The notes beneath the pieces were generated by a model that saw only the letters and a program-made list of their open reading frames with translations, had not been told where the DNA came from and did no database searches. Of a DNA stretch of 42,291 bases, positions 17,315 to 25,128 are shown piece after piece; positions within the stretch are counted from its first letter, which is position 1, and each line of letters starts with the position of its first letter. The translations under genes were made by a program, and so were the position numbers. The stretch is from Escherichia phage Lidtsur, in sequence record NC_048177.1; one strand, written 5' to 3'.

Positions 17315-19747
17315 ATGATGGATTTGCTGGCAGAACAGATTCGACTGGAAGAAGAAGCCCGCGCACGCCATCGCGCGGGGTGGTTAGACAACATCAAAGC
17401 AGCGATGGATGAAGGGCGGGCATCGGCTGTGCCGCTGTTGCAGCGTGCAATGGTTAAGGCTTATCCGACTGTCGAAGCAGCTATGCAGGAAATCCTGAAT
17501 GAGAATACTCGCGGCTTTGGTGCGCAGTACCGGACGCACATGCGGGAGATTGGGGTGAAGACCTGCGCTACTCTGGCGCTCAGCATGGCAATGTCAGGGG
17601 CGGTAGAGAAGGTCGCTGTTACGCAGCACCTACGCAGCATGGGGCAGGCTCTAATGGCTGAGGTGGTGTACCACAAAGCCTCAGCCAGAGGTGCGCGTGA
17701 AGCGGCTTACATGCAGCGTGTGGGGCAAGACGTTAAGCGCTCCAAGTCGAAGTCTCCCAATCACATCTACAACAAGGCCCGCGCATCGGCGGCTAACGTT
17801 GGGGTGCACATGGATGTGTTGCCTCAGCGTGCGCTCATCACAATCGGTAAGATGATGATGCGTGCAGTCGAACCAACAGGTCTGGTCAAGACTATCCGTA
17901 TCGGTGGCAGCGCCAGACAGCGTGGCACTGCACACTTCGCTCTGCATGATGATGTGATTATCATGCTCAACGACTGGATTAAGCTGCCCGATATGACAGT
18001 AGGCTGCTACCCAGTGATGATTATCCCGCCTGCGGAAATTAATCCCAATGGGCTTGGTGGTATGTGGCACTCTCCGGGGCAGGCGGCGACGTATCAGGCA
18101 ATCAGCCGACTGCGCCACAAAGAGTACCGCGCTCAGAAGGTAGACCCGCTACCCATTATCGAGCCGTGTATGATGCTCAGTGGCACGCCGTTCCGTATCA
18201 ATAAGATGGTGCTGGAGTTCCTACAAAACAACCACACTGGCGTTATGGGCCTGCCTGCTGCGCCAGTGGAACCTAAGCTGCCATTCACAATCCCGGAAGG
18301 TGTGAGCTTTGCTCAGTACATCAGCAGGTTCCCGCCTGAAATGCAGCAGAGGATGGACGCTGAGGCGCATGAATTTAAGGTTAAAACCCGCATGTACCAT
18401 AATGAGTACCGCAGGTTTACAACCAAGGTGCAGGCGCTCGGAAGTGCGCTGGCTGAGGCTAAGCGCTACTGTGCATACGAGCGTATCTACCTGCCGACAT
18501 ACGCCGACACTCGTGGCCGAATCTACTACGCATCGTCTCTGAATCCTCAAGGTATCGACGCAATAAGGGCGCTGCTAGAATTAGCCGACGCTGTGCCGCT
18601 TGGCAGTGAAGGGTTGTTCTGGCTGAAAGTGCATGTGGCCAACTGCTTCGGCTATGACGCCACTGACTTTGAAGACCGGGCGGCTTGGACTGACAAGACC
18701 CTGCCAAGACTTCGTGAAGCCTGCCGACTGCCGGAGGCTTACGACTCATTCTGGTCTGAGGCCGATAGTCCTCTGTGTGCATGGGCAGCTTCTGTAGAGC
18801 TGGTGCGTGCGCTGGATAGCGGCAACCCGGAAGAGTACCCGTGCCGCGTTGTTACGCAGTGGGATGCAACTTGCTCAGGTCTACAGCACCTGTCGGCTAT
18901 GCTCCGTGATGAGGTGGGCGGTGCTGCCGTCAACCTGATTAACTCGCCGGGGCGCAAAGCCGATATCTACCTCAAGACTGCTGACGCAGCAATGGCAGCA
19001 CTGCGCGAGTCTGAGGCATCCTGCAAGACTGAGCTGGGGCAGTGGCTGTTGAAGATTGGCATCCAGCGTGCGATGGCCAAGAAGCCTGTAATGACCTACG
19101 TTTACGGGGCAACCCGCCACGGTATGGTTGATTACTATGCCCTGTACCTGCGCGAGAACAACATCCCATTGCCTCCCGGACACAGCCTGTTCGAGTGTGC
19201 GATGTTCATTGCCGGGATTATGTGGGACGCTATACCGCGAGTGGTTCCTAAAGCGGCAGAGCTTATGGCTTGGTTGCAATCTCTGGCGACTATGGTGGCA
19301 GAGAAAGGAGAGTACGTTGAGGTGATAGCTCCGTCAGGCTTACGGATGGTTAATCTGTATCAGGCTTCGAAAGAGGCAGCTATGGGCCTGAACCTAATGG
19401 GTGTGCACGGCATTAAGATTAGGGAATGGCTGGATAAGCCGGACTCCCGTAAGTGTGCAGCAGCTATCTCACCCAACTTTGTGCACGCTATGGATGCCAG
19501 CCACATGATGAAAGTGCTGTGGGAAATGTGGAATAACGGGGTTTACATGGTGTCTATCCATGACTCCTTCGGCGTTGCGGCAGCACACGCTGGGCTGTTG
19601 CACAGAGTCATCCGTGAAAAATTCGTGCAGATGTACGAGGAACATGACCCTATTCAGCAACTTGCTGAAAGATATGGTGTTGAGCCTCCGGCTAAAGGCC
19701 AGTTGGATATCAAAGAGGTGCTGAAATCTACCAAGTTTTTCTGCTGA
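17315..19747 (+). CDS. single-subunit DNA-dependent RNA polymerase (T7-like)
   Basis: WDATCSGLQH (motif A), AKKPVMTYVYGATRHG (motif B) and VSIHDSFGV (motif C) parallel T7 RNAP catalytic motifs; 810 aa. Confidence 0.9.
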   Translation: MMDLLAEQIRLEEEARARHRAGWLDNIKAAMDEGRASAVPLLQRAMVKAYPTVEAAMQEILNENTRGFGAQYRTHMREIGVKTCATLALSMAMSGAVEKVAVTQHLRSMGQALMAEVVYHKASARGAREAAYMQRVGQDVKRSKSKSPNHIYNKARASAANVGVHMDVLPQRALITIGKMMMRAVEPTGLVKTIRIGGSARQRGTAHFALHDDVIIMLNDWIKLPDMTVGCYPVMIIPPAEINPNGLGGMWHSPGQAATYQAISRLRHKEYRAQKVDPLPIIEPCMMLSGTPFRINKMVLEFLQNNHTGVMGLPAAPVEPKLPFTIPEGVSFAQYISRFPPEMQQRMDAEAHEFKVKTRMYHNEYRRFTTKVQALGSALAEAKRYCAYERIYLPTYADTRGRIYYASSLNPQGIDAIRALLELADAVPLGSEGLFWLKVHVANCFGYDATDFEDRAAWTDKTLPRLREACRLPEAYDSFWSEADSPLCAWAASVELVRALDSGNPEEYPCRVVTQWDATCSGLQHLSAMLRDEVGGAAVNLINSPGRKADIYLKTADAAMAALRESEASCKTELGQWLLKIGIQRAMAKKPVMTYVYGATRHGMVDYYALYLRENNIPLPPGHSLFECAMFIAGIMWDAIPRVVPKAAELMAWLQSLATMVAEKGEYVEVIAPSGLRMVNLYQASKEAAMGLNLMGVHGIKIREWLDKPDSRKCAAAISPNFVHAMDASHMMKVLWEMWNNGVYMVSIHDSFGVAAAHAGLLHRVIREKFVQMYEEHDPIQQLAERYGVEPPAKGQLDIKEVLKSTKFFC

Positions 19748-20696: not shown

Positions 20697-22262
20697 ATGG
20701 TTCAAGACGCGCAGAACGTCAGCTATGAGTCTCTGTGGCAGAAGTACCGGGATAGCAACGTTGTCACCAAAGCGCGAGAGTACAGCCGATACACGCTGGC
20801 CAAACTGGTTAGCGAGTACGACCGCTCTGACGTTGACGATGTAAACCGCCAGCAGGTCACTCGTGACTACCAATCTGTGGGCGCTCTGCTCGTCAACAAC
20901 CTTGTCGCTCGACTCGGTGAGTTTCTGTTCCCGGCATCTGCCCGGTTCGTAAAGCTGAAATTAAACAAAGTCACTGATGCCATGCGGCAGAAAATGTCGC
21001 AGGTCAATCAGGCTTTAATCACTATTGAGAAAGCCATCGTCGATAAAGCTAAAGAGAACGGTGGCTATGCAGACCTACTGCAAACACTAGCCCAGCAAGC
21101 AGTCACTGGTAACGCCGCGCTGTACCGCGATATGGAAACTGGTTCGTACCGAGTGTACGGATTGGAATCCTTCGTGGTGCAGCGCGACGGTCGTGGCGTT
21201 GTTACGGACGCGATTATCAAAGAGCGCCTGCAATGGGACTCCCTGCCAAAAGACTTTCAGAACATGCTGAACGCCAAGGGATTCCGTTGTGGTGGCAACA
21301 AGCGTGTGTGGCTTTATACCCGCGTGCTCCGCGTCCAGAAGGAAAGTGGCAAGTACGGTTATGAGATTACCCAGCAGATTGGTAACTACCAAGGCTGCGT
21401 CTATACCCCCGGTAAAGATTACTACCCTGAAAAAGTATGCCCTTGGTTATTCCCAGTGTGGTCTTTGAAGTCTGGCGAGCATTATGGTCGCGGGATTGTC
21501 GAAGACCACGCTGGGGATTTCGCACGTCTGTCGCTTCTGTCTGAGCACAGCGCACTGTACATGCAAGAAGCCTTGCGCGTGCTGTGGCTGATGACTGGCT
21601 CTGGCGGCAACGCTGACGATATCGAGAACGCTGAGACAGGGCAGGTGGTTCCACTCCAGAGCGGCACAACGCTGGCTGGCTTGGAGGTCGGGGATTACAA
21701 CAAAGTTCAGCAGGCTCGTGACGAAATCAACCAGATTGTGCAGCGACTCGCGCAAGCGTTCATGTACACTGGCGAGTTCCGTGATTCCGAGCGTACCACC
21801 GCAACCGAAGTGCAGCAGGTAGCAACCAGCGCCGAGCGCGGGTTAGGTGGGCCATACTCCATGCAGGCTAAGACGCTCCAGATTCCTCTGGCATACGTCC
21901 TGCTCGCCGAACTGGATGAGGCAAACGTACCTGACATTGTGGGCGACGTACTTTCGCTTCAAGTTGAAGCAGGCTTAGACGCCCTCGGTCGCAGTATCGA
22001 GGCAGAGACGCTCATTCGTGCGTTGACTGACTCGCAGGCAGCAATGGTTGCTGTCCAAAATATCAACACGGTAGCGAACGTGATTGACCCTCAGCAGGTG
22101 CTGGAGACAATCTTCGCTTCTAATGGCGTTGCGCTGGATGACTATCGTAAATCCGCACAAGACTTGGCCAATGAAGGTCAGGCAATCGACAATGCAGCAG
22201 CCGCTGCCGCTGGCGTACAGCCCGGTGTAGTCGATACCGCGCCCAACGTCTCACAGATTTAA
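20697..22262 (+). CDS. head-tail connector (portal) protein
   Basis: 521 aa ORF immediately upstream of scaffold and capsid, matching T7 gp8 in size and position; GGGAG SD. Confidence 0.75.
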   Translation: MVQDAQNVSYESLWQKYRDSNVVTKAREYSRYTLAKLVSEYDRSDVDDVNRQQVTRDYQSVGALLVNNLVARLGEFLFPASARFVKLKLNKVTDAMRQKMSQVNQALITIEKAIVDKAKENGGYADLLQTLAQQAVTGNAALYRDMETGSYRVYGLESFVVQRDGRGVVTDAIIKERLQWDSLPKDFQNMLNAKGFRCGGNKRVWLYTRVLRVQKESGKYGYEITQQIGNYQGCVYTPGKDYYPEKVCPWLFPVWSLKSGEHYGRGIVEDHAGDFARLSLLSEHSALYMQEALRVLWLMTGSGGNADDIENAETGQVVPLQSGTTLAGLEVGDYNKVQQARDEINQIVQRLAQAFMYTGEFRDSERTTATEVQQVATSAERGLGGPYSMQAKTLQIPLAYVLLAELDEANVPDIVGDVLSLQVEAGLDALGRSIEAETLIRALTDSQAAMVAVQNINTVANVIDPQQVLETIFASNGVALDDYRKSAQDLANEGQAIDNAAAAAAGVQPGVVDTAPNVSQI

Positions 22263-22274
22263 TTTGGAGATTAC

Positions 22275-23510
22275 ATGACTGGTGAATACCAACCTACTGC
22301 CGCACACGCTCCCCAAAACGTACCCGCTGGCCCGACCTATACTCCCTCTGGTCACGGCGGTGCTGATTATGCTGGCGGCGGCCAAGTGGTACAGAACCCA
22401 GCGCTCGGACGCTTAGGCACTCCGATTGAACTTCCTCGCGGCGGCGCTACTCCGCAGCCGCAGGTTCCGTTCGCGCAACCGGGCCTGCTCCCGAATCAGG
22501 AGTACAACCCGTATGCACCACAACCACAGGGCAATCCATCTCCATACGCGCCTAGCCAGCAAGCCAACCCTTATGGCCCAGCGCAGATGCAAAGCCCTTA
22601 TGCGGCTCCGCCTATTCCGGTTAATGGGTATCCGCAACCGGGCGTCACGCCTCCGGGCCAAGTCGCTCCGGCGCAGCAGTTCCAGCAGCCGCAGGTAGCT
22701 CCGCAGCCTTACGCTTTCGACCCATATGGTCGCCAGCCACAGCCGCAGCAGCAACAGCAGCCGCAACCATTCCAGCAGCTACAGCAGCCTCAGCAGCAGC
22801 CACAGCAGCAGAAGCCTCAGATTCAGCCAGTGCTGGCTAATCAGAACCTGACGGCTGATAAGTTGGCACAGCAGGAGGGTGGCCTGACGCCGGAGCAGGT
22901 TGCACAGATTTTCCCTGACCAAACCAGTCAGGCAGTATTCCAAGGGATGGACACAATCGCTCGCGGTCATAACATCGACCTGCTGGCAGCGTTCGGTAGT
23001 GCGTACGAACGTCGTGACCCTACCCTCGTGAATGAGCGTTATCTTGCCCAGTTCGACCCGCAGACTGTTCAGATTTTGAAAGGCCAGTTCAGCGCGTTAG
23101 TAGCGGCAGGTGAGGCTCGTGATGCTCAGATTGAGCAGCAAGTCTACCAGATGGCTGGTGGTGAGCAGCGTTGGAATCTCGCGGTACAGGCATTCAATAC
23201 CGCAGCCGACAAGTCCACCATTGAGGCCGTCATCGCCGCCGTAAACTCCGGCGACCCGAATCAGGTTCATCTTGCCGTGAACACTATCCTCCAGTTCGTC
23301 GGCAAGCAAGGCAACATGATTCAGCGTAGTGGTCAAAGTTTGACTCCCGGTGGTGGAGGCCAAGCACCTCAAGAGGTGATGACCAACGAGGCGTTTCGCC
23401 AACACTTAACGTGGCTTGAGCAGGCATTCCCTGTTGGCTCTCCGCAGTACAACCAGCATTACAACGTACTGGTAGAGCAACGGAAGCAGGCTAAGGCATT
23501 GGGTTACTAA
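22275..23510 (+). CDS. scaffolding protein with extended Pro/Gln-rich low-complexity N-terminal half
   Basis: Between portal and capsid; residues ~50-185 are P/Q/Y-rich (QPQPQQQQQPQPFQQLQQPQQQPQQQ). Confidence 0.6.
   Translation: MTGEYQPTAAHAPQNVPAGPTYTPSGHGGADYAGGGQVVQNPALGRLGTPIELPRGGATPQPQVPFAQPGLLPNQEYNPYAPQPQGNPSPYAPSQQANPYGPAQMQSPYAAPPIPVNGYPQPGVTPPGQVAPAQQFQQPQVAPQPYAFDPYGRQPQPQQQQQPQPFQQLQQPQQQPQQQKPQIQPVLANQNLTADKLAQQEGGLTPEQVAQIFPDQTSQAVFQGMDTIARGHNIDLLAAFGSAYERRDPTLVNERYLAQFDPQTVQILKGQFSALVAAGEARDAQIEQQVYQMAGGEQRWNLAVQAFNTAADKSTIEAVIAAVNSGDPNQVHLAVNTILQFVGKQGNMIQRSGQSLTPGGGGQAPQEVMTNEAFRQHLTWLEQAFPVGSPQYNQHYNVLVEQRKQAKALGY
22735..22822 (+). repeat. CAG/CCG-rich simple-sequence tract inside scaffolding gene
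   Basis: cagcagcaacagcagccgcaacc...cagcagcctcagcagcagccacagcagcag encodes the poly-Q/P segment. Confidence 0.7.
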
Positions 23511-23530
23511 TTTCTTCGTAAGGATTTCAC

Positions 23531-24523
23531 ATGGCCGACAACTACTATCAGCCGAATCAGTTCCGTCCACACTGGGGTGGCGCGAACTCTGATAACGACA
23601 TTCACCTTGAGGTGTATGACCGTGATGTTCAGACCCAGTTCATCTACAACTCCATCTTCCGTTCCGGCCTGACCAACTTCAAGTCTGTGGCTAACCAGTC
23701 CAACACTTGGCGTGGCGACCGCCTCGGCTCCGTGACCGTCAAAGGTCGTAAGTCTGGTCAGTCTCTGGAGAACCAGCCAGTTCGCTCCGAGAAGCTGATT
23801 GTCACTGTTGATACGGTGTCTTATATCCGTATCCCGATTGACTATCAGGACGACTGGACTGCGCCGGACTTCCGTGCTGAGCTGACCCGTAACATGGGTA
23901 CATCTCAGGCGAAAGCGTTCGACCAAGCGCACGTCATCCAGCTCCAGAAGTCTGCTGACTTCGTACCGCCTGCATCTCTGGCTGGTGCGTTCAACGCAGG
24001 CATCAAGGAGAAAGTGACGCTGACTGGTACTGTAGCTTCTGAGGAAGACGACGCCAGCGCACTGGTTCACGGTCACAAGAAAGTGATTGAGGCATTCATC
24101 CGCCGCGACGCAGACCTTGGCCGTCTGGTTACGCTGATTGACCCGGCGTGGTTCAGCATTCTGCTGGAGCACAAGAAACTGATGAACGTTGAGTTCACTG
24201 GTGGCCGTGGCGTCAACGACTTCGCTATGCGCCGCGTAGCTTACGTCAACGGCGTACGCCTGATTGAGAGCAACGCTTTCCCGCAGGCTGCAATCACTGA
24301 CCACATTCTCGGCCCTGACTTCAACGTCACCGCTGAGGAAGTGAAGCGTAAGATGATTATCTTCGACCCGTCTCTGGCGCTGGTCACTGTCGAAGCCCAA
24401 CCGCTGTTCAACCGCGTGTGGGATGACGAACGTGAGATGACCAACGTACTGGACAGCTTCCACATGTACACCGTGGGTCAGAAGCGTCCTGACGTGGTTG
24501 GTGTAGTCACCACCGAAGCCTAA
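23531..24523 (+). CDS. major capsid protein
   Basis: 330 aa ORF following scaffold gene, T7 gp10-like size and position; followed by a hairpin. Confidence 0.8.
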   Translation: MADNYYQPNQFRPHWGGANSDNDIHLEVYDRDVQTQFIYNSIFRSGLTNFKSVANQSNTWRGDRLGSVTVKGRKSGQSLENQPVRSEKLIVTVDTVSYIRIPIDYQDDWTAPDFRAELTRNMGTSQAKAFDQAHVIQLQKSADFVPPASLAGAFNAGIKEKVTLTGTVASEEDDASALVHGHKKVIEAFIRRDADLGRLVTLIDPAWFSILLEHKKLMNVEFTGGRGVNDFAMRRVAYVNGVRLIESNAFPQAAITDHILGPDFNVTAEEVKRKMIIFDPSLALVTVEAQPLFNRVWDDEREMTNVLDSFHMYTVGQKRPDVVGVVTTEA

Positions 24524-24533
24524 TGGCAAACTC

Positions 24534-24557
24534 GAAGCCCTTCGCAAGAGGGGCTTC
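24534..24557 (+). terminator. stem-loop downstream of capsid gene (GAAGCCC-10nt-GGGCTTC)
   Basis: 7-bp GC-rich inverted repeat 11 nt after the capsid stop; position parallels the T7 post-capsid terminator; no strong U-tract. Confidence 0.35.
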
Positions 24558-24579
24558 TATGATTGTCACTGGAGGTTTT

Positions 24580-25128
24580 ATGACTTTACTCGAAGCAGTT
24601 AACATTGTTCTTCGGGCATTGTCGGAGCACACCGTATCCTCGACTGAGATTCGTAACCCGTCCGTAACCCTTGCACTTGACAAGATTAACGTAGCGACGG
24701 AGGAAGTTCTCACCGATGGGTGGTGGTTCAACAATATCCGAATCACCATCCCCCGCGAGGCAGATGGTAGAGTTAAATACCCCGCAGACGCACTGAGCTT
24801 CATCCCCGATGGGTTTGAGTGTATTGTGCGAGGCGGGTATCTTTACAACGCAACGTCGCAAACCTTTGTATTTACAGAGGATGTTAGCGGTGTTGTGACT
24901 TATGACCTTGAGTGGGATGACCTGCCAAGCCCGGTACAGCGCCTCATTGCGTACTCTGCCGCTGGCTCCGCATATGCCGACGACATGGGCGATAACTTGC
25001 CGCAGAGCGTGCAGGTTGGGTTCGCCACTGCGTTGCAGCAATGCCAGTCCATCCACATTCGTCAACGTCGATTTAATGCCCGCCAGCGCAAAGCGTGGTG
25101 GCGCTATGAGAGTGCTCGGAGAGGATAA
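24580..25128 (+). CDS. tail tubular protein A
   Basis: Internal ATG of track ORF after GGAGG; 182 aa; T7 gp11-like position. Confidence 0.7.
   Translation: MTLLEAVNIVLRALSEHTVSSTEIRNPSVTLALDKINVATEEVLTDGWWFNNIRITIPREADGRVKYPADALSFIPDGFECIVRGGYLYNATSQTFVFTEDVSGVVTYDLEWDDLPSPVQRLIAYSAAGSAYADDMGDNLPQSVQVGFATALQQCQSIHIRQRRFNARQRKAWWRYESARRG

Follow-up and report, generated by a model that had tools for sequence, protein, structure and literature searches.

A long, predicted disordered proline- and glutamine-rich tail on the head scaffolding protein of Escherichia phage Lidtsur

The window analyzed here spans the entire genome of Escherichia phage Lidtsur (MK629528 / NC_048177; Bonnellvirus), which has 42,291 bp and 54.6% GC. 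Within it we have studied the gene for the head scaffolding protein, which occupies 411 codons and a stop at 22275-23510 on the + strand and has an N-terminal half rich in proline and glutamine (P/Q). The product is identical (100%) to the Lidtsur 'putative scaffolding protein' (QBZ71544.1 / YP_009821638.1). It matches the profile phrog_36307, 'head scaffolding protein', over its entire length (residues 1-411, E 1.5e-207), and phrog_1018, the general family of phiKMV-type scaffolds, over residues 155-411 (E 8.2e-23), while a Pfam search with the protein returned no family at E 0.1 or better. Directly upstream on the same strand lies the portal (head-tail connector) gene at 20697-22262 (PF12236, E 4e-49; phrog_449, E 2e-135), and directly downstream is the major capsid protein (MCP) gene at 23531-24523 (phrog_267, E 7e-79). 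This order of portal, scaffold and MCP is repeated in 17 relatives, in LIMEzero and in seven metagenomic loci, and the segment from portal to MCP (20697-24523) is about 84% identical to the Bonnellvirus genomes of the J8-65 / '-sur' group. The initial annotation of this stretch, made from the letters alone, had called the gene a scaffold and named a separate scaffold gene as the observation that would speak against it. There is only one long + strand open reading frame (ORF) between portal and MCP, that at 22275-23510, and the flanking genes, the two profile matches and the identity to the annotated protein all bear the assignment out.

The scaffold gene is preceded by a Shine-Dalgarno sequence, GGAG at 22266-22269 on the + strand, five nucleotides before the ATG, and both GGAG and ATG are kept in 17/17 Bonnellvirus genes and in LIMEzero. 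When the same 17 genes and LIMEzero were compared we found no conserved internal start within the first 200 codons. An internal start that would skip the tail was considered from the record of Cronobacter phage RZ4, which begins at Met135. That methionine is missing in most relatives including Lidtsur and has no conserved Shine-Dalgarno sequence, and we reject it as an annotation artefact. Scaffolds called from an internal methionine are found in four public records, RZ4 (BES79676.1, L007 703-1536), P0012, P0171 and P0198, with lengths of 277, 305, 368 and 372 residues. In RZ4 the full scaffold ORF is present with the conserved Shine-Dalgarno sequence and ATG; the other three are known by their shortened lengths only. 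These records, which lose part or all of the P/Q tail, look like truncations by gene callers or annotation that are due to the low-complexity 5' half.

The protein is predicted to have two parts. Prediction of disorder, a check proposed with the initial annotation, places residues 1-203 (22275-22883, + strand) in an intrinsically disordered tail rich in P, Q, G, A and Y. In an AlphaFold2 model built on 18 homologues the predicted local distance difference test (pLDDT) score is below 50 at residues 1-37 and 50-203 and about 50 at residues 38-49, and in a charge-hydropathy plot residues 1-203 lie on the disordered side and residues 204-411 on the ordered side. The tail is nearly uncharged (D+E 3%, K+R 2%), with 23% proline, 4% asparagine and 15 aromatic residues. 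Residues 204-411 (22884-23507, + strand) form a conserved core that is homologous to the phiKMV-type scaffolds, in which the model predicts helices at residues 206-348 and 371-408 (pLDDT 70-88) and a disordered loop at residues 346-366. The core is predicted to end in a helix-loop-helix (residues 371-384 and 390-408; 23385-23498, + strand), and the C-terminal end is strongly conserved (...GSPxYNxHYxxLVxQRxxAKAxGY). By analogy with gp8 of phage P22 (PMC12005531) this is a candidate coat-binding element. Taking the identity of the gene and this architecture jointly, we are close to certain that the ORF encodes the head scaffolding protein of a phiKMV-like coliphage, built from a disordered tail and a helical core.

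The stretch flagged in the initial annotation, 22425-22830, corresponds to codons 51-186 of the scaffold ORF and reads IELPRGGATPQPQ...QPQPQQQQQPQPFQQLQQPQQQPQQQKPQIQPV; the string quoted there is located at residues 154-182. It had been described as a P/Q/Y-rich low-complexity N-terminal domain encoded by CAG-rich repeats. At the protein level the description is correct. Residues 51-186 contain 28% Q, 26% P, 9% A, 7% G and 6% Y, against a genome average of 4.4% P and 5.0% Q for Lidtsur proteins, and the best window of 136 residues reaches 54% P+Q compared with 19% in the next-best Lidtsur gene. The bias is far beyond chance, and this is the most biased stretch in the genome. The limits that had been given lie inside the biased region and are too narrow, the low-complexity disordered tail covering residues 1 to about 203. 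The statement on repeats holds for the last ~90 nt only. Imperfect CAG/CCR repeats with a period of 6-12, detected by Tandem Repeats Finder (TRF) and a repeat finder, are limited to 22734-22820, whereas the remaining ~300 nt of the flagged stretch have a biased composition without DNA repeats. The region is CAG-rich because it is glutamine-rich, the share of CAG among glutamine codons being no higher there (74%) than in the other Lidtsur genes (78%).

Length polymorphism had been predicted, and comparison of related phages reveals it, to a small extent. The scaffold ranges from 401 to 416 residues across 55 full-length genus-level sequences, and all indels are in-frame. In an alignment of 56 scaffolds nearly all of the gap columns fall at residues 155-186, with minor sites at residue 67 and residues 134-144. 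The hot spot is thus a polyQ/P linker at residues 154-186 (22734-22832, + strand), encoded by the imperfect CAG/CCR repeats (TRF rows 22734-22811, repeat families D1/D2), in which amino acid identity is 40-58% compared with about 85% in the core. Lidtsur and the two mates of its 90%-identity cluster share a private insertion of ten residues, QPQQQPQQQK, following FQQLQ at residues 171-180 (22785-22814), which has the appearance of a duplication arising locally in the imperfect tract. All three sequences of this cluster are 411 residues long, and the tract of P0001 differs from that of Lidtsur by a single Q-to-P substitution. Within other clusters of 90% identity the lengths are 404-410, 401/411/416 and 408-410 residues. 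Free gain and loss of residues are limited to the last ~33 residues of the P/Q-rich tail, that is, to the polyQ/P segment.

The rest of the tail carries a series of short motifs. It is common to the 17 Bonnellvirus genes, LIMEzero gp39 (Waewaevirus) and metagenomic proteins, with overall identity to the Lidtsur scaffold down to 48%, and in all of these the motifs follow in the order VVxNPALG, I/V-x-LP, three NPY, SPY/FAAPP, PPGQxAP and F-D/N-PY. The first is VVQNPALGRLGT at residues 38-49 (22386-22421, + strand), the sole stretch of the tail for which a degree of local structure is predicted, a short strand or helix with pLDDT of about 50. Among 18 sequences spanning this range of identity V39, N41, P42, A43, L44 and G45 are invariant, and a related WVxNPG is present in a few phiKMV-type tails. 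It is followed by a zone of aromatic motifs at residues 78-151 (22506-22727, + strand), where NPY, SPY, NPY, SPY, NGY, PPGQxAP, PY and FDPY stand ~10 residues apart. Here N78, P79, Y80, P90, P99, P108, P113 and P150 are invariant in 18 sequences (alignment A2), each tail has four or five copies of [N/S]P[Y/F], and proline precedes 7 of the 11 aromatic residues between residues 60 and 155 (binomial P 0.015). The pairwise ratio of nonsynonymous to synonymous substitution rates (dN/dS) is 0.15-0.24 for residues 51-153 and 0.08-0.10 for the core. The tail is under purifying selection and retains a fixed set of short motifs, rather than drifting freely.

We have compared the tail with those of the wider scaffold family. 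Word-based searches were saturated by the low complexity, returning 18 and 6 proteins, so that an exhaustive HMMER scan was needed; applied to 1.84 billion representative proteins this gave 250 scaffold homologues (representative clusters). In the 142 full-length representatives the tail, taken as the segment before the conserved core, has a median length of 93 residues (5th-95th percentile 58-143), and its median P+Q content is 28%, reaching at least 30% in 58 of the 142. The clade of the Lidtsur type stands at the extreme, with tails of 176-212 residues (the next longest is 150), a P+Q fraction of 0.42-0.52 and the highest aromatic content, and only here are there at least two NP[YF] motifs. 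The long form occurs in just three clusters at 50% identity, P0010, P0012 and P0018. The Lidtsur tail is a lineage-specific, approximately twofold enlargement of a low-complexity N-terminal tail that nearly all scaffolds of the family carry.

The closest relatives are the other scaffolds of Bonnellvirus and Waewaevirus (PHROG 36307), including those of J8-65 (AIM40535.1) and LIMEzero (gp39, CBY88570.1). These have the same two-part architecture and the same motifs, and nothing essential differs apart from the private insertion of the Lidtsur cluster; the Lidtsur scaffold is 77-82% identical to other Bonnellvirus scaffolds (tblastn). The phiKMV-type scaffolds (PHROG 1018; tblastn matches in 403 phage records) occupy the same slot between portal and MCP and have a homologous C-terminal helical core. 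Their tails can also be P/Q-rich, the first third of LKD16 gp31 (Pseudomonas phage, 327 residues) having 28% P and 17% Q and that of the SnaR1 scaffold 21% P and 20% Q. Compared with these the Lidtsur tail is roughly double in length (~200 residues against ~95-125), contains more glutamine and more aromatic residues (7% against 2-5%), has repeated [N/S]P[Y/F] motifs, which in other clusters never exceed one copy, and has a polyQ/P tract at its end.

More distant is the 'head assembly' scaffold gp9 of T7, itself phrog_1052, which has the same gene order. The Lidtsur protein matches phrog_1052 at residues 162-340 (E 7.5e-6), and hhalign against T7 gp9 gives E 1.8e-3 and a probability of 15%, with 28% identity over 109 columns. 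The core may thus be weakly homologous to the central helices of T7 gp9 (FQxM..IA, YAGGxxxF/W). T7 gp9 also has a low-complexity N-terminal tail, of ~125 residues, but there it is strongly acidic (D+E 30%) where that of Lidtsur is neutral and P/Q-rich (D+E 3%). By the initial annotation the tail was unusual among T7-like scaffolds, which it described as compact and helical as a rule. We find no support for this view, as the phage is phiKMV-like, its 142 homologues have low-complexity tails, that of LKD16 gp31 is P/Q-rich, and T7 gp9 has its acidic one. Scaffold gp8 of P22 is a functional analogue, to which we could detect no match of the Lidtsur scaffold in either sequence or fold. It is mostly helical, and is not known to contain a P/Q-rich domain. 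P22 gp8 is a transient internal scaffold with a coat-binding C-terminal helix-turn-helix and mobile, disordered N-terminal segments (PMC12005531).

These observations lead us to a reading that we consider probable, in which a disordered, multivalent tail and a length-tolerant linker are carried on a helical core. The core and its C-terminal helix-loop-helix would bind the coat protein during procapsid assembly, as in P22 and T7. With ~100 or more copies per procapsid the tails would form flexible, uncharged multivalent arms, and the Pro-Tyr motifs together with the VVxNPALG element could make weak contacts among the tails and/or with portal, core or coat, contacts that may assist in starting the shell and in filling it. 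Unfolded and uncharged tails would also make it possible for the scaffold to leave through capsid pores upon DNA entry. Between the zone of motifs and the core, the polyQ/P segment would serve as a linker that tolerates changes in length, and replication slippage on its short imperfect repeats could give rise to small in-frame indels tolerated by selection. A specific multivalent role for the tail is a more tentative proposal than the reading as a whole, and we place it slightly on the doubtful side.

A number of points weigh against this interpretation. Both the number of copies in a procapsid and the escape through pores are taken from what is known of T7 and P22. The ~10-residue periodicity of aromatic residues and sequence is not significant (P 0.06-0.26; autocorrelation z <= ~2-3). 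A pattern resembling VVxNPALG, [hydrophobic]-x-x-NP[AGVS], occurs in 10 of 141 family tails where about 3 are expected by chance, and we have rejected it as a family-wide hallmark of the N-terminal tail. The tail has diverged more quickly than the core, and its conservation could be due in part to the short time of divergence within the genus. In favour of the interpretation, the JG068 paper (PMC3765740) infers from virion analyses of phiKMV, LKD16 and LKA1 that the scaffold of that phage is likely not in the mature virion. We found no functional work on these scaffold tails in the literature searched.

The strongest alternative makes the tail a passive entropic spacer or filler, of which length, flexibility and lack of charge alone matter, through excluded volume inside the procapsid and ease of exit, and whose motifs bind no partner specifically. 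Several of the results above fit such a role. Across the family the tails vary widely, from acidic in T7 to rich in P, Q and A in phiKMV types, on a core that is conserved; indels are tolerated in the polyQ/P part, and dN/dS in the tail is two to three times that of the core. It is more difficult to reconcile a spacer with motifs (NPALG, three NPY, SPY/F, PPGQ and F-D/N-PY) that are invariant or nearly so even in the most divergent relatives, with a length that is almost fixed within the genus outside residues 154-186, and with dN/dS values that indicate clear purifying selection on the sequence, beyond composition. We regard a purely passive tail as unlikely, while taking it seriously.

A second alternative, which takes up the phase separation suggested in the initial annotation, sees in the tail a prion-like or sticker-and-spacer domain through which scaffold, together with coat and portal, would condense in a liquid-like manner and so create assembly foci. 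Its composition is suggestive, being Q-rich and nearly uncharged with its 15 aromatics spread along it, and in this it is like the Q/N-rich prion-like domains, for example the N domain of yeast Sup35, whose oligopeptide repeats the Lidtsur tail resembles. However, it differs from such domains in its high proline content, which is unfavourable for amyloid and argues against prion conversion, and in its low content of asparagine. The case is purely compositional, and the aromatic residues lack significant periodicity. In the supplement to 'Prion-Like Domains in Phagobiota' (PMC5694896) the J8-65 orthologue (A0A088F6K0, 82% identical to the Lidtsur scaffold) is listed with a PLAAC log-likelihood ratio (LLR) of 32.4, together with an uncharacterized LIMEzero protein (LLR 40.1; a row without accession, possibly gp39) and several scaffolds of Acinetobacter podophages (LLR 33-37). 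The literature that we searched contained nothing specific on P/Q-rich or phase-separating phage scaffolds, no phase-separation data for any phage scaffold, and no data on self-templating aggregation or condensate formation by the tail. We consider this alternative improbable.

A more particular form of the idea, to which we give a shade less credence again, is that the long uncharged P/Q tail with its Pro-Tyr 'stickers' is a condensate-forming module that gathers scaffold, coat and portal in foci and so nucleates procapsids. Such a tail may be likened to CsoS2, the disordered scaffold of the carboxysome. If this were true, the acidic tails of T7, the short P/Q tails of phiKMV and the long P/Q/Y tails of Bonnellvirus and Waewaevirus would be alternative physical solutions to one problem. 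A passive spacer and a condensate differ from our preferred interpretation solely in the specificity of the contacts made.

The proposal in the initial annotation that the ORF might be a fusion of the scaffold with another function, or that the true scaffold might be encoded elsewhere, is effectively refuted, and we judge it very improbable. It could draw on the greater length of the Lidtsur scaffold, which exceeds typical family members by ~100 residues, and on the statement in the J8-65 record that its resemblance to LIMEzero gp39 is confined to the C-terminal half. Yet LIMEzero gp39 has a like tail with the same motifs. Searched alone, the tail matches no Pfam family and no PHROG other than that of the scaffold, its matches among 50,697 phage records are all Bonnellvirus scaffolds, and the core is included in all 150 matches listed from the exhaustive HMMER scan. 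Moreover, the tail is predicted to be disordered with no fold of its own, and no other long + strand ORF lies between portal and MCP. Least probable of all is that the CAG/CCG tract is a hypermutable contingency repeat for phase or length switching, or an artefact of assembly as the initial annotation had allowed; small length differences do occur even inside clusters of 90% identity, but perfect trinucleotide runs do not go beyond 3 units in Lidtsur or 4 in 24 relatives, where a contingency repeat typically has at least 6, the frame is kept in every full-length relative with no frame-shifting on/off variant, the Lidtsur cluster is uniform in length, and the region is not an artefact because dozens of isolates and assemblies, obtained independently, contain it, and it is present in all 55 genus-level sequences.

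The tail is thus real but largely ordinary, the extreme member of a family-wide pattern and special in degree. As a discovery it matters little, because the gene is already annotated as the Lidtsur scaffold and the J8-65 orthologue is already catalogued with a prion-like domain (PMC5694896). The N-terminal tails of scaffolds are almost unstudied, and the value of the present analysis is mostly comparative. In nature the tails of the family differ stepwise in length and chemistry while the helical core is kept, and their conserved motifs could be mutated; such a series would be convenient for studying what disordered tails contribute to the nucleation of procapsids, the recruitment of portal or core and the exit of the scaffold.

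The 5' end of the scaffold gene exhibits an unexpected pattern of substitution. In codons 3-33 (22281-22375) the 17 Bonnellvirus genomes have seven variable sites, all of them nonsynonymous and none at a third position. In the rest of the gene 66-79% of third positions are variable, and 0.34^31 is ~3e-15. The synonymous rate dS in codons 1-50 is 0.11-0.34, against 0.8-1.5 in the remainder. This points to a constraint that may act at the nucleotide level or through dual coding. An ORF in the +2 frame at 22282-22416 (GTG start, 44 codons, with a hydrophobic middle) stays open throughout the 17 genomes; its openness can be ascribed to a frame without hydrophobic codons, as a by-product of composition. 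In the divergent pair P0007/P0009 frame 1 is better conserved than frame +2, and for a constraint blind to frame the probability of 0 in 7 changes falling at position 3 is just 0.06. Folding of this 5' segment gave no sign of RNA structure (z = 0.07), and the segment does not recur elsewhere in the Lidtsur genome as a promoter-like repeat would.

Two overlapping genes over the P/Q region were considered and rejected, one at 22413-22766 (- strand, 117 residues) and another at 22426-22698 (+2 frame, 90 residues). Both would have L/R-rich low-complexity products, and the open runs vary among relatives (70-151 residues in frame -1). Such long alternative frames arise because the CAG/CCG composition is poor in stops.

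Elsewhere in the window a single-subunit RNA polymerase gene is found at 17315-19747, and the MCP gene is followed by the tail tube and nozzle genes. The Lidtsur record has no tRNA genes and no terminal repeat. The first ~200 nt of the MCP gene (23553-23732) share 94-98% identity with relatives whose overall identity is ~84%. In contrast to the beginning of the scaffold gene, the pattern of substitution here is normal, with third positions dominating, which is probably the result of strong constraint on protein and codons in a highly expressed gene. Just past the MCP stop there is a GC-rich hairpin with a 10-bp stem at 24534-24557, GAAGCCCUUC-GCAA-GAGGGGCUUC (fold z = -3.0), which matches the position of the terminator annotated after the LIMEzero capsid gene. 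Finally, the gene for tail tubular protein A, the tail-tube gene, probably starts at 24580 and not at 24523. A GGAGG and an ATG are found at 24580, corresponding to Met20 of the mechanically called ORF 24523-25128, and the Pfam and PHROG matches begin at residues 15-23 of that ORF.

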